Virus record (IMG/VR): IMGVR_UViG_3300045988_048025
Strand: one strand, 5' to 3'
Length of the DNA: 44,090 bases
From: a virus
Lineage: Duplodnaviria > Heunggongvirae > Uroviricota > Caudoviricetes
The position numbers were made by a program, and so were the translations under genes. Below the pieces are notes generated by a model. It ran no database searches. It saw only the letters and a program-made list of their open reading frames with translations, and was not told the origin of the DNA. The first letter of the stretch is position 1. Each line of letters opens with the position of its first letter. Shown here piece by piece: positions 3,464-44,090 of the stretch.

Positions 3464-5356
3464 ATGCTATTAACTTTAGCACCACAGGGTTTAACTATGA
3501 GCTTACTTACATCACTCATCAGCCATCAGATATGGCTGCAACGCACCGCATCCGGTGAGGTGAAAGACCTCGCACCGTTCATTAAGGAGATGCGGGATGA
3601 AATAAAACGGCAGGTGCTGTTATTCGGTGATGACGGGCGGAGCACTGCGCGACTGAATAAACTGTTACTCGACCTTGAAGAAGCGCTAACCGGACTTACC
3701 GGCGATTGGCAAACAAAGCTGACAGAAGACCTTAAGGAACTGGCGGCATACGAGGCTGAGTGGAACGTAAAGACACTAACCGCCAACGTTAACGCGGAAT
3801 TTGTTACGCCTACCGCCGAACAGGTGTGGGCCGCCGCCGATTTTCAGCCATTATCGTTAAACGACAAGCCTGTTGACTTCACTAAATTGATGTCTGGTTG
3901 GGGTGAAACCGAAGTCGCCCGCCTCGTAACTGGAGTTAAGATGGGCTTTGTACAAGGTCAAACCACACGGCAGATTGTTAAGAATGTCGTAGGCTCTGGT
4001 GGGCTGGCCGACATCTCAGAACGTAACGCGGCTACAGTAATCCGCACCGCGCTGTCTCATGTATCCAACGAAGCCCGTAACGAGACGTACCGCCAGAACG
4101 ACGACATCATCGAGAAATACGAGTGGGTATCAACGCTGGACAGCCGTACCAGTACGATTTGCAGAGCCAGAGACAGGATGACGTGGGAAATCGGTAAAGG
4201 GCCGATGCCTCCGGCCCATCATAATTGCTTACTTGGGGATACTGTAGTATCTACCGGTAGTCCGGTTTCTAACATTTTTAAACGGGCGTACAAAGGCACT
4301 ATAGTCTATGTCTCTACAAGGTCCGGTCGCACCTTGTCTATCACCCCAAACCACCAGGTATTGACTACCAATGGTTGGGTTGCTTCCGGCCTTCTCAATG
4401 TAGGCGACAAGCTCGTGTGCGCTAAGGACTCTGCGCTCTCTCTCAAGCATAAGGAACACAACGTTGTAGCCAAGTTCTCCGATTTGTTTAGTGCGGCTAA
4501 TGTAGCGGTCAATCCTGCGGCGGTCCGTACAAGCCCAACCACCACCGAAGACTTCCACGGCGACGGAACCGACGGCGAAGTCGAGATTGTACTTGTCAAC
4601 CGCCTTTCCTGGGATAAAGTCAAGTCCGGACTGAATAAGCAAATCATTGACAAGGAACTCCCAGTGGCTTCCCGCATTTATGACTCCCTCTCTGGCTTTG
4701 GCTCTGCGAAGCAGTTCAGCATGGTCGGCCTTTCTCCCTCGGACAGCTTCATGCGCCGCGGCGGAGAGAGCGAGGCGCTCCTCGGGAGTAGCTTTAGCCA
4801 TTCTGATAAACATAGCGTCGCTGACACCGCGAATACTAACGCCGTTCTCTCTGAGAACGCGTATGACTGGGTTACACGAAACGCCGATAATCTTTCCGAT
4901 TTCAACTGGTCCGATGCCGTCGGTATAGAGCTTGATGATGTTGTCGATTTGGTCTTTAGTGAAGCTGATTTTTGCGGGCATGTTTATAACCTCGAAAATG
5001 AACAGAACTGGTATCTCGCAAATGGAATTATAGCACATAATTGTCGCTCAACAACCGCGCCAGTAATCAGTTCTGAGTTCGACTTCCTCGATAAAGGCGC
5101 AAAACGCGCGGCTAAGGGTGCGGACGGTGGTATGCAGGTAAGTGCAGACACCACCTATTATGAGTTCCTCAAACAACAACCTGCGTGGTTTCAGGACCAG
5201 GCGCTCGGCCCTGTTCGCGGTAAGATTTTCCGTAACAGCGGTATATCACCGGAAGAGTTTCGCGTAATATCTGTAGATGGTTTCGGGAATCCGCTCACGC
5301 TTAAGCAGATGGCGGAACTCGATAAACGTGTTGCTGATTATCTGAAAGGGGATTAA
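3464..5356 (+). CDS. Head morphogenesis protein (phage Mu F-like / SPP1 gp7-like) interrupted in frame by an intein-like element
   Basis: EWVSTLDSRTSTICRARD...PPAHHN then, after the insert, CRSTTAPV, which resembles the conserved H-x-N-C-R region of Mu F-like proteins; located after the portal. Alternative start ATG 3497. Confidence 0.75.
   Translation: MLLTLAPQGLTMSLLTSLISHQIWLQRTASGEVKDLAPFIKEMRDEIKRQVLLFGDDGRSTARLNKLLLDLEEALTGLTGDWQTKLTEDLKELAAYEAEWNVKTLTANVNAEFVTPTAEQVWAAADFQPLSLNDKPVDFTKLMSGWGETEVARLVTGVKMGFVQGQTTRQIVKNVVGSGGLADISERNAATVIRTALSHVSNEARNETYRQNDDIIEKYEWVSTLDSRTSTICRARDRMTWEIGKGPMPPAHHNCLLGDTVVSTGSPVSNIFKRAYKGTIVYVSTRSGRTLSITPNHQVLTTNGWVASGLLNVGDKLVCAKDSALSLKHKEHNVVAKFSDLFSAANVAVNPAAVRTSPTTTEDFHGDGTDGEVEIVLVNRLSWDKVKSGLNKQIIDKELPVASRIYDSLSGFGSAKQFSMVGLSPSDSFMRRGGESEALLGSSFSHSDKHSVADTANTNAVLSENAYDWVTRNADNLSDFNWSDAVGIELDDVVDLVFSEADFCGHVYNLENEQNWYLANGIIAHNCRSTTAPVISSEFDFLDKGAKRAAKGADGGMQVSADTTYYEFLKQQPAWFQDQALGPVRGKIFRNSGISPEEFRVISVDGFGNPLTLKQMAELDKRVADYLKGD
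4226..5041 (+). mobile_element. Intein-like in-frame insertion (272 codons)
   Basis: Begins with Cys (CLLGDTVVSTG, block A-like), contains ITPNHQVLTTNGW (block B-like TxxH), ends VYNLENEQNWYLANGIIAHN (block F/G-like, terminal HN) followed by +1 Cys; excision would restore HHN-CRST. Confidence 0.75.
4229..4981 (-). CDS. Antisense ORF nested in the intein: putative HTH plus PD-(D/E)xK (Vsr/DUF559-like) nuclease, candidate homing endonuclease
   Basis: ATG at 4981 with GAGG 8 nt upstream; HTH-like IDNIIKLYTDGIGPVEIGKIIGVSCNPVIRVLRENG; nuclease-like core YNLDFAVGSVAVEVFGGGW...DRRRIDRYISRTKQIGELGYNVVFL; protein-like composition while the sense strand here is Ser-rich linker. Track ORF is 4229..5038. 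Confidence 0.4.
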   Translation of the reverse strand: MPAKISFTKDQIDNIIKLYTDGIGPVEIGKIIGVSCNPVIRVLRENGVSIRGVSDAMFIRMAKATPEERLALSAAAHEAVRGRKADHAELLRRAKAREGVINAGSHWEFLVNDLLIQSGLDFIPGKAVDKYNLDFAVGSVAVEVFGGGWACTDRRRIDRYISRTKQIGELGYNVVFLMLERERRVLSAHELVAYIEKAGSNPTIGSQYLVVWGDRQGATGPCRDIDYSAFVRPFKNVRNRTTGRYYSIPK

Positions 5357-5820: not shown

Positions 5821-5840
5821 AAGGCCCCTTACGGGGCCTT
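5821..5840. terminator. Hairpin terminator between convergent genes
   Basis: aaggcccc-ttac-ggggcctt, between the + gene ending at 5817 and the - gene ending at 5845. Confidence 0.55.
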
Positions 5841-6096: not shown

Positions 6097-6125
6097 TTCT
6101 TCTCGCCTCTTGTTGGTGTGAGTGA

Positions 6126-6154
6126 ATAGTACCCTATTATATTGGTGTCTGCAA
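6126..6154 (-). promoter_or_regulatory. Sigma70-like promoter for 5845..6096 (-35 TTGCAG, 17-bp spacer, -10 TACTAT) overlapping a 16-bp operator-like motif
   Basis: Read on the - strand: TTGCAG-acaccaatataataggg-TACTAT, then leader tcactcACACCAACAA. Confidence 0.4.
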
Positions 6155-6220: not shown

Positions 6221-6249
6221 TTGACTTTTCACTAAAAATATGATAAGCT
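6221..6249 (+). promoter_or_regulatory. Sigma70-like promoter (-35 TTGACT, 17-bp spacer, extended -10 TGaTAAGCT)
   Basis: TTGACT 6221..6226, TG 6241..6242, TAAGCT 6244..6249; near-identical copy at 37507..37535. Confidence 0.5.
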
Positions 6250-6362
6250 CCACCTGAGCTTGTGAAGTATGAACAAGCGACCGCGGCGCGGGCAGGTAAC
6301 GGAGCGGGACGTAAGTCCTGAGTGTAGTTACGCTGACGCGTTCGGAAGGGCCGTACTCTATT
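6250..6362 (+). ncRNA. Candidate conserved structured RNA element / leader, copy A
   Basis: About 110 nt downstream of the promoter, largely identical to 37536..37650; hairpins gcttgt...acaagc and ggac-gtaa-gtcc, the latter replaced by gtgcc-atta-ggcac in copy B. Confidence 0.35.
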
Positions 6363-6429
6363 GCTTGTGTAAAAAGTAACTGGTTTACTGAGATTACGCC
6401 GTTTCTATGTTTAAATGATAAGGACTAGC

Positions 6430-6449
6430 GCCCCGCTTTATGGCGGGGC
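6430..6449 (+). terminator. GC-rich hairpin downstream of RNA element copy A (weak terminator-like)
   Basis: gccccgc-tttatg-gcggggc followed by ttta. Confidence 0.3.
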
Positions 6450-6473: not shown

Positions 6474-6860
6474 ATGAATCTTAAAGCGACTGTCGTAGCG
6501 GGGGCATGTTTCATCATCCTGGCTTACGCACACGGCATCTACCAGTATCGCGCCGGCTGGAACGAAGGCCGGGCGAATCTCGTTTCGCAGCAACAGCAGA
6601 AAGCACAGGCTGAGTTAGCTAAGAAAACACAACGGCAGCAGCAGGACGAATCAAAGGCCGCAGCCGCGGACAACGAAGGCAAGACGAAATCGGAGGTGAT
6701 TACCCGTGAAGTCGTTAAGTACATTAAAACGCCTGGCCGCAGCGTGTGCACTTTTGACCATGAGCGCGTGCAGCTCAAGTCCCGCGCCGTCGCAAACGCC
6801 AATTCCATACCCGGATACGACGATGATGCAGCCGCCGTGCAAACTGGCCCCGCCAAGTAG
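6474..6860 (+). CDS. i-spanin (Rz-like), putative
   Basis: N-terminal TM segment VVAGACFIILAYA, then Q/K/E-rich predicted coiled coil; contains an embedded +1-frame lipoprotein ORF. Confidence 0.5.
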   Translation: MNLKATVVAGACFIILAYAHGIYQYRAGWNEGRANLVSQQQQKAQAELAKKTQRQQQDESKAAAADNEGKTKSEVITREVVKYIKTPGRSVCTFDHERVQLKSRAVANANSIPGYDDDAAAVQTGPAK

Positions 6861-7051: not shown

Positions 7052-7756
7052 ATGAATCGTTTTTTACGTTATCCGTTCCAGGAAGAAGCTGGGGTAGAAG
7101 ATAAATCTGGTGGCGGTGACGCGCCGAAAATGTTCACAGCCGAAGAAGTTCAGGCGCTGATTGAGAAAGAAGTCGCCGGGCTTAAGGCCAATCAGGAAGC
7201 ATTGCTGGCGGAGAAGAAAGAAGCCGCTCGTAAAGCAAAAGAGGCCGAAGAAGAACGGCAGCGTGCCCACCAGGAGGCGTTAAAAGCCGCTGGTAAGATG
7301 GACGAGTTTGAAAAGACGATTCGTAGCCAGTATGACCCGGTGTTAGCCGAGAAAGATGGTCGCATCTCCAGAATGGCAGAGCGCATCCTCGGCAGCGAAC
7401 GTAAAGCGGTGTTAGGCTCTTTCGCGGGCGACTTTATCACCCCGGAAGCAGTAGACATTCTTGCGCCGTTCGTCAAGACTGAGTTTGAAGGCGATGATGT
7501 GGTTACTAAGTTTGTTGGCGCAGATGGCAACGTAATCACGACTGACCCGGAACAGTTCCGCAAATACCTGCGCGAACACAAAGCGTTTTCGCATTTGATT
7601 AAAGCAAATGCAGCTTCCGGCGGCGGGGCTTCCGGTAGCAAAGGCGGCGGGGCCGCACCAGCGTTTAAAGACATGAGTGAAGCGGAGCGTATCGCTCTGT
7701 ACGAATCGAACCCTGCCGAATTTGAACGGCAACTTAAAGCCCTGAGGAAAAAATAA
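7052..7756 (+). CDS. Scaffolding protein (putative)
   Basis: ATG 7052 with RBS cagggga; E/K/A-rich coiled-coil-like sequence; immediately precedes and overlaps the major capsid gene (TAATG). Confidence 0.55.
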   Translation: MNRFLRYPFQEEAGVEDKSGGGDAPKMFTAEEVQALIEKEVAGLKANQEALLAEKKEAARKAKEAEEERQRAHQEALKAAGKMDEFEKTIRSQYDPVLAEKDGRISRMAERILGSERKAVLGSFAGDFITPEAVDILAPFVKTEFEGDDVVTKFVGADGNVITTDPEQFRKYLREHKAFSHLIKANAASGGGASGSKGGGAAPAFKDMSEAERIALYESNPAEFERQLKALRKK

Positions 7757-8805
7757 TGGCAATTACTACTATCGGCGACATCGTAACCGGTAAAGAATCG
7801 GTCATTCTGTCTTACATGACAGAAGACCCGGTAGAAAAAACTGCGTTCTTCCAGTCTGGTATCCTTACCCCGACTCCGTATGCCGCTGCTATCGCTAACG
7901 GCCCGTCTAACAAAGCTGTTCTGCCGTACTGGAAAGCGATTGATACCTCTATCGAGCCGAACTACTCGAACGACGTATACCAGGACGTCGCTACCCCGCG
8001 TAACGTGCAAACCGGTGAGATGGACGTTCGCGTAGCCTACCTGAACGAAGGCTTTGGACAGGCTGACCTGACTGTTGAACTGACCAGCCAGCAGCCGCTG
8101 CGCTCCGTAGCGTCCCGTCTGGATAACTTCTGGCAGCGCCAGGCACAACGTCGTCTGATTGCTACCGCGCTCGGCCTGTACAACGACAACGTAGCCGCTG
8201 ACGATGATTACCACAAGCAGAATGACATGGTTGTAGACGTGTCTGCTTCTCTGGGCTTCGACTCCGGCGCGTTTATCGACGCTACCCAGACTATGGGCGA
8301 TGCGCTGATGGGCAACGGTGGTGAAGTGCTGGGTGCTATTGCTATGCACAGCTTCGTTTATGCGCAGGCACGTAAGCAGCAGCTTATCGACTTCATCCGT
8401 GACGCCGACAATAACACCATGTTCGCCACCTACCAGGGCTATCGCGTGATTGTTGACGACAGCATGACCGTAGTTGGCTCCGGCGTCAGCCGTAAGTTCA
8501 TCTCCATCATCTTCGGCAACGGCGCTATCGGTTACGGTGAAGGTTCTCCGTCCAACCCGCTGGAATACGAGCGCGAAGCATCTCGCGGCAACGGCGGTGG
8601 TGTTGAAACCCTGTGGACCCGCAAGACCTGGTTGCTACATCCGTTTGGTTACAGCTTCACCAGCGCGGTAATCACCGGTAACGGTACTGAGACTACCCCG
8701 CGCTCTGCTTCATGGCAGGACCTGGCGAACGCCTCCAACTGGAATCGTGTTGTTGACCGTAAGCACGTACCGATTGCCTTCCTGGTAACTGGTGTCGGTG
8801 CTTAA
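7756..8805 (+). CDS. Major capsid protein
   Basis: 349-aa ORF after the scaffold with strong RBS and highly optimised codon usage; followed by a strong terminator. Confidence 0.7.
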   Translation: MAITTIGDIVTGKESVILSYMTEDPVEKTAFFQSGILTPTPYAAAIANGPSNKAVLPYWKAIDTSIEPNYSNDVYQDVATPRNVQTGEMDVRVAYLNEGFGQADLTVELTSQQPLRSVASRLDNFWQRQAQRRLIATALGLYNDNVAADDDYHKQNDMVVDVSASLGFDSGAFIDATQTMGDALMGNGGEVLGAIAMHSFVYAQARKQQLIDFIRDADNNTMFATYQGYRVIVDDSMTVVGSGVSRKFISIIFGNGAIGYGEGSPSNPLEYEREASRGNGGGVETLWTRKTWLLHPFGYSFTSAVITGNGTETTPRSASWQDLANASNWNRVVDRKHVPIAFLVTGVGA

Positions 8806-8821
8806 GGTTAAGCTATAATAG

Positions 8822-8845
8822 AGAGGGGCTTCGGTCCCTCTTTTC
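8822..8845 (+). terminator. Rho-independent terminator after the major capsid gene
   Basis: agagggg...ccctct hairpin followed by TTTT. Confidence 0.6.
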
Positions 8846-8864
8846 ATTTACTAAGAGGTAAATT

Positions 8865-9566: not shown

Positions 9567-9776
9567 ATGGTAGATAATTATGTAATCCGCGAAAAATACA
9601 CCCACGTTGACGTTGTTGATGGTCAGGTGATGCCTGTTCGCGGTGTTGATGGTCAGGTGATGCCTGTTCGCGGTGTGGTAGAAGCGGATGAACTGGTTGC
9701 GACTCAACCGGACAACGAAGAAGCGCACAACAACGGCGGTGGTACTAAGCGTCGTCGCCGTAAGTCAGAGGAATAA
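9567..9776 (+). CDS. Small protein with internal tandem duplication
   Basis: ORF with RBS aaggaaagg; contains DGQVMPVRGV twice; basic C-terminus RRRRK. Confidence 0.4.
   Translation: MVDNYVIREKYTHVDVVDGQVMPVRGVDGQVMPVRGVVEADELVATQPDNEEAHNNGGGTKRRRRKSEE
9618..9677 (+). repeat. 30-bp near-perfect tandem duplication inside a coding sequence
   Basis: gatggtcaggtgatgcctgttcgcggtgtt repeated, 29 of 30 identical. Confidence 0.85.
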
Positions 9777-14314: not shown

Positions 14315-15441
14315 CCCAGCATCTCCGGTGAAATAGTTAAACGTGCGACCTCGCCATATTCGGCGCTATAAGTAATTACATTTGCACTACGGCCCGACAT
14401 CCATCCGCCGCGCGAGGCGTAGGCGTCTTTAGCCGCTAAGGTGCGGTGTTGCTCAACAATCATGTTACGGCTTTCTACAATCTTCTGGTGGTGCAGATGG
14501 CCTACGTGGGCGTAGCTGTAAACACTCTCGCCGAACGCTTTACGGAACTTGGCAATCATTACCGGTTCGATAGCGTCGAATCGCGCCTTATGCCCGTGGT
14601 GAAAGAACAGCGTAGTTTTGCCGTGTTGGACCATCTTGTAAACATCCGGCGACGTATCGACGAACACACGCGGCTCATTGTCGTACAGCGTACTAAACAT
14701 CTCAGCTAACCAAATCATTCCGCTTTCGTCGTGGTTCCCTTGCACGATAAGCAAGCGAACAGATTTATGCTTAACCAGCGCCATGTCAACAACACGGCGT
14801 ACCATACGAATCATGTATCGGACCAGTTTCTGATAACGAGTGTCCGCATCAAGAACATGACCACTCGCTGGCGTAACCGCATCCAGACTATCGAAGTGCG
14901 CGAAGTCACCCAGCAGGTTAATAACCCCAGTTCCTGCATCTGGTGCTTTCTGAAACGCCGCATCGAACCATCGGGAGAACAGGTCTTCCGCAATCTTCAT
15001 ATCCCAGTCGTCGCCGCTCTCGTCAGCCCAGGCCAGCATACCAAGATGGAAATCAGATACCGTGTACAGATTGAGTAGTTTATCATCGCGTTTGGCTCGA
15101 GTCGCTTTAACCGGCGCAACTGGCGTAATCTCCGACTTCATTCCTTCGATCACGGCTTTCATTAACTCGACCTGACGTTCGGCGTCGGTGTCTGTCTTAA
15201 CCCATTGCAACTTAGTGTTGCCGAACTCGTCCACCAGTGACGACGTTCCTTTAATTTTGTAGCCGTCCGGGACAAGATGGCTAACGTCACGACCGTGACC
15301 TACGCCTTTCTTCGCCAGCTTCGCTTTACGGATACGAATAACTCGGTCTGAGATGCCGTATTTACGGGATATGTCGATAATCTTTGTTCCGGCGTTCAAT
15401 TCTTCCTGTAACTGTTCGTCGGTTATTTTCTTCCGGGCCAT
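14311..15441 (-). CDS. N-terminal HTH domain fused to calcineurin-like metallophosphoesterase
   Basis: HTH-like ISRKYGISDRVIRIRKAKL; phosphoesterase motifs SDFHLG, LLGDFAHFD, GNHDE, HHGH, GHLHH. Confidence 0.6.
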   Translation of the reverse strand: MARKKITDEQLQEELNAGTKIIDISRKYGISDRVIRIRKAKLAKKGVGHGRDVSHLVPDGYKIKGTSSLVDEFGNTKLQWVKTDTDAERQVELMKAVIEGMKSEITPVAPVKATRAKRDDKLLNLYTVSDFHLGMLAWADESGDDWDMKIAEDLFSRWFDAAFQKAPDAGTGVINLLGDFAHFDSLDAVTPASGHVLDADTRYQKLVRYMIRMVRRVVDMALVKHKSVRLLIVQGNHDESGMIWLAEMFSTLYDNEPRVFVDTSPDVYKMVQHGKTTLFFHHGHKARFDAIEPVMIAKFRKAFGESVYSYAHVGHLHHQKIVESRNMIVEQHRTLAAKDAYASRGGWMSGRSANVITYSAEYGEVARLTISPEMLG

Positions 15442-15671: not shown

Positions 15672-15712
15672 GGTGTAGCTCCTGTTTGAGTTAACATTGT
15701 TGGTGTAAGTGA

Positions 15713-15741
15713 ATAGTATCCTATTATGTTGGGGTGCGCAA
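15713..15741 (-). promoter_or_regulatory. Sigma70-like promoter for the inverted island (-35 TTGCGC, 17 bp, -10 TACTAT) with operator-like motif
   Basis: Same architecture as 6126..6154 and the same leader ACACCAACAA. Confidence 0.4.
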
Positions 15742-25814: not shown

Positions 25815-25836
25815 AAGGCCCCAATCGGGGCCTTTT
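25815..25836. terminator. Hairpin terminator separating the + structural block from the - replication block
   Basis: aaggcccc-aatc-ggggcctt followed by ttctct. Confidence 0.6.
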
Positions 25837-37230: not shown

Positions 37231-37401
37231 TTATTTAACGTTCTCTTTAACCCACGATTCAACTTTATTACGGTCAAATGTACCCGGCATTCTGCGACCC
37301 ATTACTTTAACGCTGCAATCAGGAAACTTTCCACTCTTAATCCAGTTATTAATTGTCTGGCGGGTGACGCCGATTAATTCTGCAACTTCATTGATAGTCA
37401 T
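37231..37401 (-). CDS. Small HTH DNA-binding protein (AlpA/excisionase-like fold, putative regulator)
   Basis: ATG 37401 with RBS aggaga; MTINEVAELIGVTRQTINNWIKSGKFP. Track ORF extends to 37491. Confidence 0.5.
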   Translation of the reverse strand: MTINEVAELIGVTRQTINNWIKSGKFPDCSVKVMGRRMPGTFDRNKVESWVKENVK

Positions 37402-37506: not shown

Positions 37507-37535
37507 TTGACTTTTACTTAAAAATATGCTAAGCT
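37507..37535 (+). promoter_or_regulatory. Sigma70-like promoter (-35 TTGACT, 17 bp, extended -10 TGcTAAGCT), paralogue of 6221..6249
   Basis: Near-identical to the promoter at 6221..6249. Confidence 0.5.
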
Positions 37536-37650
37536 TCACTGAGCTTGTGAGATATCGCAAGCGACCGCGGAGCGGCAGGGAACGCAACGCGTGCCATTAG
37601 GCACTTGAGTGTAGTTCCGCTGGCGCTTTCGGAAGGGCCAAAGTCTATTG
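37536..37650 (+). ncRNA. Candidate conserved structured RNA element / leader, copy B
   Basis: Largely identical to 6250..6362, with a compensatory change in one hairpin (gtgcc-atta-ggcac versus ggac-gtaa-gtcc). Confidence 0.35.
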
Positions 37651-37736
37651 TTAATCCCGCCTAAATACCCAAGCCACTGATAATTAAAAGTTTCTATAGT
37701 TGCCGTAAGCAAGGTAGAGAGTACTTCACTCCGCTG

Positions 37737-37756
37737 GGGTGGGCTAACGCCCACCC
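37737..37756 (+). terminator. GC-rich hairpin downstream of RNA element copy B (weak terminator-like)
   Basis: gggtgggc-taac-gcccaccc; T-run only 15 nt further on. Confidence 0.3.
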
Positions 37757-37815
37757 ACTGCGTTGCGTACTCTTTTAAGAAACGAAAGAATCACAACGGC
37801 ATCGTAACTATTCTC

Positions 37816-37844
37816 TTGCACACCCCAATATAATAGGACACTAT
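37816..37844 (+). promoter_or_regulatory. Sigma70-like promoter (-35 TTGCAC, 17 bp, -10 CACTAT) with operator-like motif
   Basis: TTGCAC-accccaatataatagga-CACTAT, 35 nt upstream of the first + strand early gene. Confidence 0.45.
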
Positions 37845-37878
37845 TCACTTATCGGAACGAGACAGAGGAGTTGGGGTT

Positions 37879-38148
37879 ATGTTTAAGAAGGGTCAGTTGG
37901 TGAAAACGAAACGCGGTGGGCAGTACGTAATAGTGTTGCAGGACGAGAACGAGTATGACGAGGATAATATAGTCGACGTATGGGGCCTGGTAAGAAAGAA
38001 ACCCGGGTTCGCCTTACGCGATAATCTGGAATTAATTGGCAACAATTTTAAATTCAAAGGGGTATTCGATGGCGGACTGAAAGCCTCATTCACAACGGCA
38101 TCGAATCATGATGCTCGTGCCGACGACTCTGAGGGAGGTTGCCGTTAA
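37879..38148 (+). CDS. Hypothetical early protein
   Basis: ORF with RBS gaggag. Confidence 0.4.
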   Translation: MFKKGQLVKTKRGGQYVIVLQDENEYDEDNIVDVWGLVRKKPGFALRDNLELIGNNFKFKGVFDGGLKASFTTASNHDARADDSEGGCR

Positions 38149-38749: not shown

Positions 38750-38786
38750 TACGCTGCTACACAGCAGCGTATCATTTTTCTCATTT
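38750..38786 (+). terminator. Rho-independent terminator
   Basis: Perfect 9-bp stem tacgctgct-acac-agcagcgta followed by tcatttttctcattttt. Confidence 0.65.
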
Positions 38787-38864
38787 TTGTTCTATTTCAC
38801 CAAACGCAACAATCGAAGCGACTATTGCAGGAGATGCAACAATACAAACACCAATAAAATTTAC

Positions 38865-38893
38865 TTGCACACTGGGGGAGAATAGGATACCAT
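38865..38893 (+). promoter_or_regulatory. Sigma70-like promoter (-35 TTGCAC, 17 bp, -10 TACCAT) with variant operator-like motif
   Basis: TTGCAC-actgggggagaatagga-TACCAT. Confidence 0.35.
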
Positions 38894-39063
38894 TCATTTA
38901 CACAAACGAGAGGAGAGGCAGAATATGGTTACTTTGATGATTATGGAGTTCGAAAACAGCGCTGCAACTTACCGCGAGATGACTATGGCGCAGGCGTACC
39001 ACCTGGCTAAACACGGCAACTTCTACAAGGCTCAAATCATTAATGAGTTTGGGGTAATTGACT

Positions 39064-39336
39064 ATGAATTTTAACAGCTACACCGTGACCGTTGATTTTG
39101 AGGGGCTGGAGTTGCCCCTCCCTAACAACTACCGGTACATAACGCGCGATAATAATGGGTTTATTCAGGGGTGGAGGAACAAACCGACGGACACTGAGTT
39201 CGGGATGTCAGGAGGAGAAGAGTTGCCGGTCACTTTCGGGCATCAGAGTAGCAATGGAGAACTTAAAACGGTGATTCGTAAGTATCGTCGCCGCGATAAC
39301 ACCGGGCTTATCGCAATAACAGGCGCTGTTGAATAA
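39064..39336 (+). CDS. Hypothetical protein
   Basis: ATG 39064 (track ORF from TTG 39058); a 49-codon ORF at 38925..39074 with a strong RBS precedes and overlaps it. Confidence 0.4.
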   Translation: MNFNSYTVTVDFEGLELPLPNNYRYITRDNNGFIQGWRNKPTDTEFGMSGGEELPVTFGHQSSNGELKTVIRKYRRRDNTGLIAITGAVE

Positions 39337-41836: not shown

Positions 41837-41865
41837 TTGACACCTAAGACTAATCCGACGATACT
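41837..41865 (+). promoter_or_regulatory. Promoter-like element (-35 TTGACA, 17 bp, -10 GATACT) inside a 350-bp non-coding region
   Basis: TTGACA 41837..41842, GATACT 41860..41865. Confidence 0.35.
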
Positions 41866-41904
41866 TAAATCACCTCCTGTTCCATCCCTCTGCTCTCCAG
41901 TTTT

Positions 41905-41936
41905 ATCCCGGCCCTGACCCAGCTGGGATTTTTTTT
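41905..41936 (+). terminator. T8 tract preceded by a GC-rich imperfect palindrome (terminator-like)
   Basis: atccc...cccagctggg followed by TTTTTTTT. Confidence 0.35.
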
Positions 41937-41958
41937 ATCTATTTTCTGCAATGACTAG

Positions 41959-41987
41959 TTGACTATTACCCTCGACCCTATTATATT
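41959..41987 (+). promoter_or_regulatory. Sigma70-like promoter (-35 TTGACT, 17 bp, -10 TATATT)
   Basis: Near-consensus hexamers 35 nt upstream of the next gene cluster. Confidence 0.5.
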
Positions 41988-44035: not shown

Positions 44036-44090
44036 ACGCGGCCTATATAACTGATACAAGCCCTCTATGGAGGGCTTTTCTGTACATCCC
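44036..44090. repeat. Second copy of the 55-bp terminal direct repeat
   Basis: Exact identity with 1..55. Confidence 0.9.
44060..44079 (+). terminator. Rho-independent terminator after the last + strand gene
   Basis: gccctc-tatg-gagggc hairpin plus TTTT, about 60 nt after the stop at 43999. Confidence 0.55.

Follow-up and report, generated by a model that had tools for sequence, protein, structure and literature searches.

A duplicated, structured RNA element at the heads of two operons in Kagunavirus genomes, with a put-like layout

To our knowledge, factor-independent control of RNA polymerase by the nascent RNA is essentially limited to the put RNAs of phage HK022 and of a few lambdoid relatives. 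In HK022, putL and putR are two diverged paralogues that stand behind sigma-70 promoters at the heads of separate operons, form two stem-loops with conserved bulges or loops, have terminators downstream, and need no dedicated protein; put RNAs have also been annotated in HK75, O276, and HK639. The fold of putL begins at the first nucleotides of the transcript (PMC9378689). Here we describe an element that shares these features of layout, with stem-loops that are backed by covariation and with no dedicated protein found, in a DNA stretch of 44,090 nucleotides, IMG/VR record IMGVR_UViG_3300045988_048025. This stretch, at its full length, is referred to below as the window; it is a complete genome, that of a Kagunavirus (Guernseyvirinae), and the phage is a virulent siphovirus that infects Escherichia coli. 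The element is present on the plus strand as copy A (positions 6221 to 6363), ahead of the spanin gene, and as copy B (37507 to 37650), ahead of the first early genes, and the region of interest was 99% identical to OZ035764.1. As judged from comparative sequence analysis, the element is a real and strongly supported new RNA family, put-like in layout and without homology to put.

The two copies were recovered by self-BLAST at 80% identity over 148 nt (E = 7e-23), and they differ by indels of 1, 1, 1, and 4 nt. Apart from a 55-bp overlap of the window ends, they form the longest internal repeat of the genome. A sequence-only reading of copy B, made before any database search, had called it a paralogue of a copy at 6221 to 6362 with the same promoter architecture, and both claims held. 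The promoter form common to the copies, promoter P1, is of the sigma-70 type with an extended −10 element (TTGACT, 17 nt, TGnTAAGCT), and this 29-nt pattern was present exactly twice in the window, at 37507 to 37535 and at 6221 to 6249, with none expected from shuffled sequences. In copy B, the −35 element TTGACT (37507 to 37512) is followed by the 17-nt spacer and by the extended −10 element TGCTAAGCT (37527 to 37535). The promoter spacer differs between the Kagunavirus and Jerseyvirus types. Promoter geometry would place the start sites at ~37541/37542 in copy B and ~6256/6257 in copy A, one or two bases 5′ of the first hairpin, and in all types the fold would begin at about +2. With 58% GC, the element is GC-rich compared to its surroundings.

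A covariance model of the element (R1) matched copy A at 6254 to 6363 with 99.7 bits and copy B at 37539 to 37650 with 93.1 bits (E = 3e-28). Each of three Kagunavirus genomes gave exactly two matches, located ∼6 to 7 nt after the identical extended −10 promoter, and phage Jersey gave one. Five sequence types were defined from GenBank records and from pattern scans of IMG/VR and metagenomes. Type A occupies the spanin locus of Kagunaviruses and of some Jerseyviruses, types B1 (the window), B2 (Golestan and UTI89UKE1), and B3 occupy the early-region locus, and type J is the spanin-locus type of phage Jersey and of most Salmonella Jerseyviruses. The metagenome scan for new variants returned the same five known types alone, on contigs of up to ∼45 kb.

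The same fold was predicted for both copies, with hairpin P1, a two-base linker, the long hairpin P2, and a single-stranded tail. Hairpin P1 of copy B (37543 to 37562; GCUUGUG/CGCAAGC, loop AGAUAU) would stand right at the 5′ terminus of the transcript. The P2 of this copy (37565 to 37632), drawn from the predicted fold and pair counts, is a long interrupted hairpin of 68 nt made up of five helical segments, with two internal loops that are conserved and an apical hairpin that varies. Its segments are P2a (CCG/CGG), P2b (GGAGCG/CGCUUU), and P2c-d (CAGGGAAC/GUUCC-G-CUG), its conserved internal loops read GCAACGC and UUGAGUGUA, and it is capped by GUGCC-AUUA-GGCAC. The corresponding parts of copy A are hairpin P1 at 6258 to 6278, hairpin P2 at 6281 to 6345, and a tail that extends to 6363. 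The apical hairpin is the site of the compensatory change that the sequence-only reading had noticed (GUGCC/GGCAC in copy B, GGGAC/GUCCU in copy A), and two further compensatory pairs were found between the copies, one in P2b (C-G to A-U) and one in P2d (U-A to G-C), so that the secondary structure is conserved in both. The tail of copy B (37633 to 37650) aligns as the conserved single-stranded segment AAGGGCCAAAGUCUAUUG, and its motifs UUCGGAAGG and UAUUG, the latter located 14 to 18 nt 3′ of P2, are nearly invariant across all five types. In copy A, a CGCCGU sequence can base-pair with GCGGCG on the 5′ side of P2. This pairing is present in the minimum-free-energy structure predicted for the full leader, which hints at an alternative conformation.

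All five types, folded one by one, gave the same architecture. Hairpin P1, with 6 to 7 bp, is invariant among the Kagunavirus types (GCUUGU/ACAAGC), and all of its pairs are re-coded in type J (ACGCU/AGCGU). The types were aligned by hand, with length differences N-padded so that MAFFT kept the register. Counted on this alignment, which was fitted to the structure and holds only ∼5 independent lineages, and against a shuffle control that ignores phylogeny, 95.4% of the cells were paired for 30 pairs in the four Kagunavirus types (10 pairs changed on both sides; slid controls, 27 to 44%), and 97.8% were paired for the 23 pairs of P2 alone when type J was included (13 pairs changed on both sides; slid controls, 25 to 44%). 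In P2b, one pair takes the forms C-G, U-A, and A-U, and the apical hairpin has a different sequence in each type with its pairing always kept. Two G-U pairs in P2b are invariant, which favors a plus-strand RNA over duplex or cruciform DNA as the selected form. Selection preserves the RNA fold and particular unpaired nucleotides rather than a reading frame.

A protein-coding gene was rejected as an explanation of the conservation. The longest stop-free frame shifts strand and frame between types, and no frame is conserved. The open reading frames (ORFs) annotated over the element in many GenBank records are probably spurious. Spurious-looking "hypothetical protein" ORFs of this kind include Jersey gp08 (7265 to 7456 of the Jersey sequence, L055), an ORF at 37536 to 37754 on the minus strand of the window, and UTI89UKE1_018 and UTI89UKE1_064 (7716 to 7826 and 38234 to 38368 of L038). 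A leader peptide initiated at the UUG of UAUUG was also considered and, on inspection of the sequences, rejected; the ORFs would have 1, 3, 6, and 10 codons with no conservation.

By BLAST, 183 phage records carry the type A leader and 269 carry that of type J, a sum of 452, compared to 462 records with the subfamily major capsid protein at ≥80% identity. On these record counts, the A-locus element is essentially universal in the Guernseyvirinae (∼452/462 records). In genomes for which BLAST reported three places, a third copy was considered and rejected, because the model gave exactly two and the extra matches were a second promoter motif (described below). One IMG/VR contig (3300045988_039442; L043, 2158 to 2330) has A-locus flanks upstream of the spanin gene and a B3-type P2 interior. 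Read from its sequence, this arrangement indicates gene conversion or recombination between the paralogues, and the exchange of the P2 interior between loci argues that the module works independently of the gene that follows it.

No described family accounted for the element. Rfam 15 gave no match in the whole window at gathering thresholds, and in E-value mode both regions gave only chance-level matches (at most 17.8 bits, versus thresholds of at least 35 bits). A search of the window for tRNA and tmRNA genes found none. Bacterial homologues proposed by a pattern scan were rejected; among the matches listed, they were chance hits in GC-rich genomes with at most 18.5 bits, compared to 35 to 102 bits for true members of the element family. 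An IMG/VR match of the L056 type was rejected as well; there, TTCGGAAGG forms the loop of a terminator unrelated to the element, and the covariance model gave no match. Mimicry of a CRISPR repeat (type I-E or I-F) was rejected on inspection of the sequences, as it came down to a 7-nt coincidence in copy B only. A literature search for put-like elements or transcript maps in the Guernseyvirinae found none, and a time-course transcriptome sequencing study of Kagunavirus vB_Eco_K1B4 covers annotated genes only (PMC12645636).

The gene map of the window was drawn by comparison with phage fPoEco01. A leftward replication block occupies ∼26 to 37.4 kb. A rightward unit begins at ∼37.5 kb with small early genes, holins and endolysin, and further small genes, continues with the terminase, portal, and head-maturation genes, and ends at ∼5.8 kb. 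A second rightward unit starts at ∼6.2 kb and comprises the spanin, scaffold, major capsid, connector, and tail-tube genes. Positions 1 to 55 and 44036 to 44090 were identical in a self-comparison, which indicates a circular or terminally redundant assembly. Copy B lies, as the sequence-only reading had it, in the divergent region, with a leftward helix-turn-helix (HTH) gene (37231 to 37401) and then the helicase-primase gene on one side and the rightward small early genes, beginning at 37879, on the other.

At the A locus, the preceding operon closes with a strong terminator (5821 to 5840 in the window and 7187 to 7207 in Jersey), followed in order by promoter P1, the core, a linker of ∼55 nt, a two-tier hairpin (P3), and the ribosome-binding site of the spanin gene. 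The closing hairpins, of the form AAGGCCCC-loop-GGGGCCTT, have near-identical counterparts at 25815 to 25834 in the window and at 14328 to 14347 in Jersey; they mark where convergent or consecutive transcription units end and resemble terminators that work in both directions. Promoter P1 is the only recognizable promoter ahead of the spanin, scaffold, and capsid genes. The spanin start codon is 15 to 25 nt from the A-locus hairpin, which leaves no room for a promoter between them, so the A-locus RNA must be at least partly a late-gene leader. Inside this operon, a canonical intrinsic terminator stands just 3′ of the major capsid gene (8822 to 8850) and is conserved across genera in phage Jersey (9859 to 9885). 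The gene after it begins within ∼15 nt; the genes behind the terminator therefore rely on read-through. At the B locus, a second promoter and five small genes lie downstream of P1, the core, and P3; these genes form the first early cluster, which ends at another canonical intrinsic terminator (38750 to 38780).

The linker of copy B (37651 to 37716) contains the short motifs ACUGAUAAUU, GUUUCUAU, and UUGCCGU, which are common to copy A and other leader modules. Motifs of the form GAUU(n)(n)GCCGU, UAUCUAAG(U/A)U, and AAGUAACUG recur in the linkers of otherwise diverged leaders (window, 6390 to 6410 and 37700 to 37707; Jersey, 7419 to 7430; L039, ∼4312 to 4322). In B2-type leaders, a (CTCA)n microsatellite of ∼3 to 7 copies, depending on the phage, is located between the core and the downstream hairpin (L039, ∼4350 to 4385; also L048, L050, and L038).

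The two-tier hairpin P3 of copy B spans 37717 to 37774 (fold z = −3.3). Its lower stem is GAGAGUAC/GUACUCUU (37717 to 37724 with 37767 to 37774), and its upper GC stem has 8 bp and a UAAC loop (37737 to 37744 with 37749 to 37756). The strong hairpin previously claimed at 37737 to 37756 is thus real and is the upper tier of this larger structure. In copy A, P3 (6417 to 6459) has an upper stem at 6430 to 6449 followed by UUUACUUAU, was flagged as terminator-like, and is separated by 15 nt from the spanin start codon at 6474; a compensatory variant, GCCCUGC/GCAGGGC, occurs in the sequences L003 and L011. As a structure, P3 is conserved, with a lower stem that differs in sequence between types: GAUAAG/CUUAUC in type A, UAUACG/CGUAUA in type J, and the stem given above in type B1. 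A terminator-like U-rich tail was found in type A only. There is no U-run behind the upper stem of copy B, the type J counterpart likewise has no U-tract, and neither hairpin was flagged by the terminator scan, so that P3 does not, in general, make a good intrinsic terminator. After P3, copy B has AAGAAACGAAAGAA at the place where copy A has GAGAAAGGAGAAAC just 5′ of the start codon. This difference tentatively suggests that the whole leader was duplicated and that the ribosome-binding site then decayed, with the core kept under selection.

The sequence-only reading had further proposed that copy B may yield an independent transcript of ∼200 nt rather than a leader. A GC-rich hairpin and a promoter-like motif do follow the element, but the hairpin has no U-tract, and its absence after 37756 argues against efficient termination there. 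Because of this absence, and because the A-locus RNA must at least partly be a leader, a discrete small RNA could arise only via partial termination or processing. The separate promoter claimed at 37816 to 37844 was recovered as a promoter-like motif at 37816 to 37848 (−35 TTGCAC, 17 nt, −10 CACTAT), ahead of the first early gene at 37879, and it recurs elsewhere in the window. The 33-nt motif (TTGCAnACnCCAAyATAATAGGnnACTATTCAC; −10 TACTAT or CACTAT) was found three times, with none expected, at 37816 to 37848 on the plus strand and at 6122 to 6154 and 15709 to 15741 on the minus strand, and a degenerate fourth copy (38866 to 38898, plus strand) stands behind the terminator at 38750 to 38780. 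It heads the rightward early clusters and, in the leftward direction, the immunity/phosphoesterase block and a gene for an 83-amino-acid product, and it is kept in Jerseyviruses that have no copy B. The conserved spacer of the motif may be an operator.

The copy B locus is a mosaic hot spot. Phages K1H (L198, 236 to 460) and Jersey (38860 to 39240) each carry another module at this locus, with a strong promoter and a structured leader of 220 to 350 nt that gave no covariance-model match. K1H shares only the 3′ part with the window (linker, P3, and second promoter), and its 5′ module is different.

We tentatively propose, as the best-fitting reading though one that stays short of probable, that the element is a cis-acting leader that would make RNA polymerase resistant to pausing and termination in the manner of put. 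In this proposal, the host sigma-70 RNA polymerase would start at the strong extended −10 promoter, with the element as the 5′ part of the transcript, and the emerging RNA would fold into P1 and the long P2 hairpin. The folded RNA would act in cis on its own polymerase, as HK022 put RNA does, and the modified polymerase would then pass P3 and the terminators at 8822 to 8850 (copy A) and 38750 to 38780 (copy B). By analogy with put, we infer that the RNA would contact the polymerase, that read-through would depend on the RNA, and that no phage protein would be required. The proposal draws on the 5′ fold, the paralogues at operon heads, the selection on helices and unpaired bases, the terminators downstream, and the lack of a dedicated protein. 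It is rather doubtful that the element represents a second class of RNA, unrelated to put in sequence, that alone reprogrammes RNA polymerase in the late operon of the Guernseyvirinae and sometimes, with its early copy, at a second locus. A structured cis-acting RNA within an operon that gives read-through of distal terminators is also known from Bacillus, the eps-associated RNA (EAR), but the element has no Rfam match to EAR, and host and architecture differ.

Several observations weigh against a put-like role. The putL and putR sequences were taken from the HK022 genome, with numbering checked against PMC9378689, and a put covariance model (R2) was built from six putL-type sequences, for which diverged ones were collected. 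This model recovered HK022 putR, an independent positive control, with 34.8 bits, but it found nothing in the window, Jersey, or UTI89UKE1 (E ≤ 10), and the best score in copy B with filters off was 1.8 bits. Conversely, model R1 found nothing in the HK022 put region. The architecture differs as well, with a 20-nt P1, a 68-nt P2, and a 3′ tail versus two stems of ∼35 nt in put. Copy B is optional; it is missing in many Kagunaviruses and in all Jerseyviruses, which have other leader modules there. The adjacent hairpin is a convincing terminator in type A only, as types B1 and J have no U-tract, and the early clusters have their own promoters behind each terminator, so processive antitermination is not obviously required there. 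A constitutive antiterminator made of RNA only would also offer no obvious way to delay the late genes. Further differences from HK022 are that the element occurs in virulent siphoviruses of the Guernseyvirinae rather than in a lambdoid phage, that one of its copies heads a late structural operon and not an early operon, and that put acts protein-free through the β′ zinc-binding domain of the polymerase, whereas the activity of the element is a prediction.

The strong promoter and the GC-rich two-tier hairpin downstream of it in every type would also suit an independent, stable small RNA of ∼200 to 235 nt that is ended or processed near P3, has a P1-protected 5′ end, and acts in trans. StxS RNA comes from such a short transcript, that of the lambdoid PR′ promoter. 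The terminator-like tail in type A, the separate promoter for the next gene behind copy B, and the recurrence of the linker motifs GAUUnCGCCGU and UAUCUAAGU between types fit this explanation, as does a duplication that preserved the RNA and not a functional ribosome-binding site. However, with no U-tract in the B1 and J hairpins and no other visible promoter for the late genes of the A locus, many transcripts must continue, there is no known or predictable target, and the most conserved part is the structured core, which has no accessible seed. We therefore place a trans-acting RNA on the unlikely side, although a small-RNA role may exist alongside the leader role. The same layout in type A, in which a strong promoter is followed at ∼200 nt by a terminator-like hairpin and then by lysis and structural genes, parallels the lambda PR′-qut-tR′ region ("6S" RNA) ahead of S, R, and Rz, and the paired sites near the starts of two operons recall the cis-acting lambda nutL and nutR. 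The element could accordingly be an RNA site for a phage or host protein that governs elongation or termination, as in nut/N or PR′-qut-tR′/Q, so that the late genes behind copy A would be turned on only after an early protein is made. Such a candidate would explain late-gene timing, the conserved internal-loop nucleotides suit protein binding, and many small early ORFs have no assigned function. Yet PHROGs and Pfam searches of ∼30 small or unassigned ORFs detected no N-like, Q-like, or other antiterminator family, and a Protein Data Bank (PDB) sequence search with three candidate ORFs gave no match, a result that still allows for Q-likeness in structure alone. The promoter spacer is not conserved between Kagunaviruses and Jerseyviruses, which speaks against a conserved Q-binding DNA site, and neither a Q gene nor a Q-binding site was found. 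For the lambda leader, no requirement for a conserved RNA fold is known, and the parallel is weakened by the J and B1 hairpins without a U-tract. A nut site is ∼30 nt (boxA and a 15-nt hairpin) and needs N, whereas the core here is 110 nt. From reading the sequences, a boxA-like UACUCUUUUAAG follows P3 in types B1 and B3 only, with none in A, B2, or J. The RfaH ops sequence GGCGGTAGnnTG was not found on the coding strand of the leaders; the only matches close to the elements had two mismatches and were on the opposite strand (6274 to 6285 and 37558 to 37569, minus strand). A protein-dependent site is thus unlikely.

The element might instead be a plain 5′ untranslated region that governs spanin translation or stabilizes the late mRNA, with P1 as a guard of the 5′ end and with leader segments that would pair with the Shine-Dalgarno region. 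A 5′-terminal stem is known to stabilize an mRNA. In type A, GUUUCU (6401 to 6406) can pair with GGAGAAAC just 5′ of the spanin AUG, and in type J, pairing of CUUUC to GAAAG is possible at the equivalent place. These anti-Shine-Dalgarno segments differ between types A and J, though, and the copy B core is under purifying selection even though no gene start follows and the remnant of the ribosome-binding site has decayed. An elaborate 110-nt core with invariant loops is unnecessary for such a role, and we consider this explanation improbable. A DNA-level or replication role, in which the transcript primes or activates an origin or the repeat is a protein-binding DNA site, appears very improbable. 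Copy B does adjoin the replication genes at the minimum of cumulative GC skew, and the element is GC-rich compared to its surroundings, but the skew tracks gene orientation throughout and was rejected as uninformative about an origin. In addition, the universal copy A is far from the replication module, copy B is missing in most relatives with the same genome layout, and the G-U pairs are kept on the plus strand only.

Two further features of the window were noted. Between the endolysin gene and the next cluster, a promoter (TTGACA, 17 nt, GATACT; 41837 to 41865) is followed ∼40 nt on by a hairpin and U8 terminator (∼41898 to 41938) and then by another promoter (41959 to 41987); the stretch from 41837 to 41987 might encode a small RNA of ∼80 nt as a unit of its own. 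A 30-nt unit is repeated in tandem at 97% identity at 9611 to 9676, within an ORF at 9567 to 9776.

If the element does act as put does, a second, unrelated RNA of the same layout would make it possible to compare how an RNA locks the elongation complex in a termination-resistant state. Its carrier phages are easily grown, are present in the BASEL and phage-therapy collections, and are represented by >450 sequenced genomes (E. coli and Salmonella). As a compact module of promoter and RNA that has moved between loci, the element is also a candidate part for synthetic biology. Whatever its mechanism, it is an undescribed, strongly conserved RNA family that is labeled "hypothetical protein" in many records, and it marks the late-operon promoter of the Guernseyvirinae.

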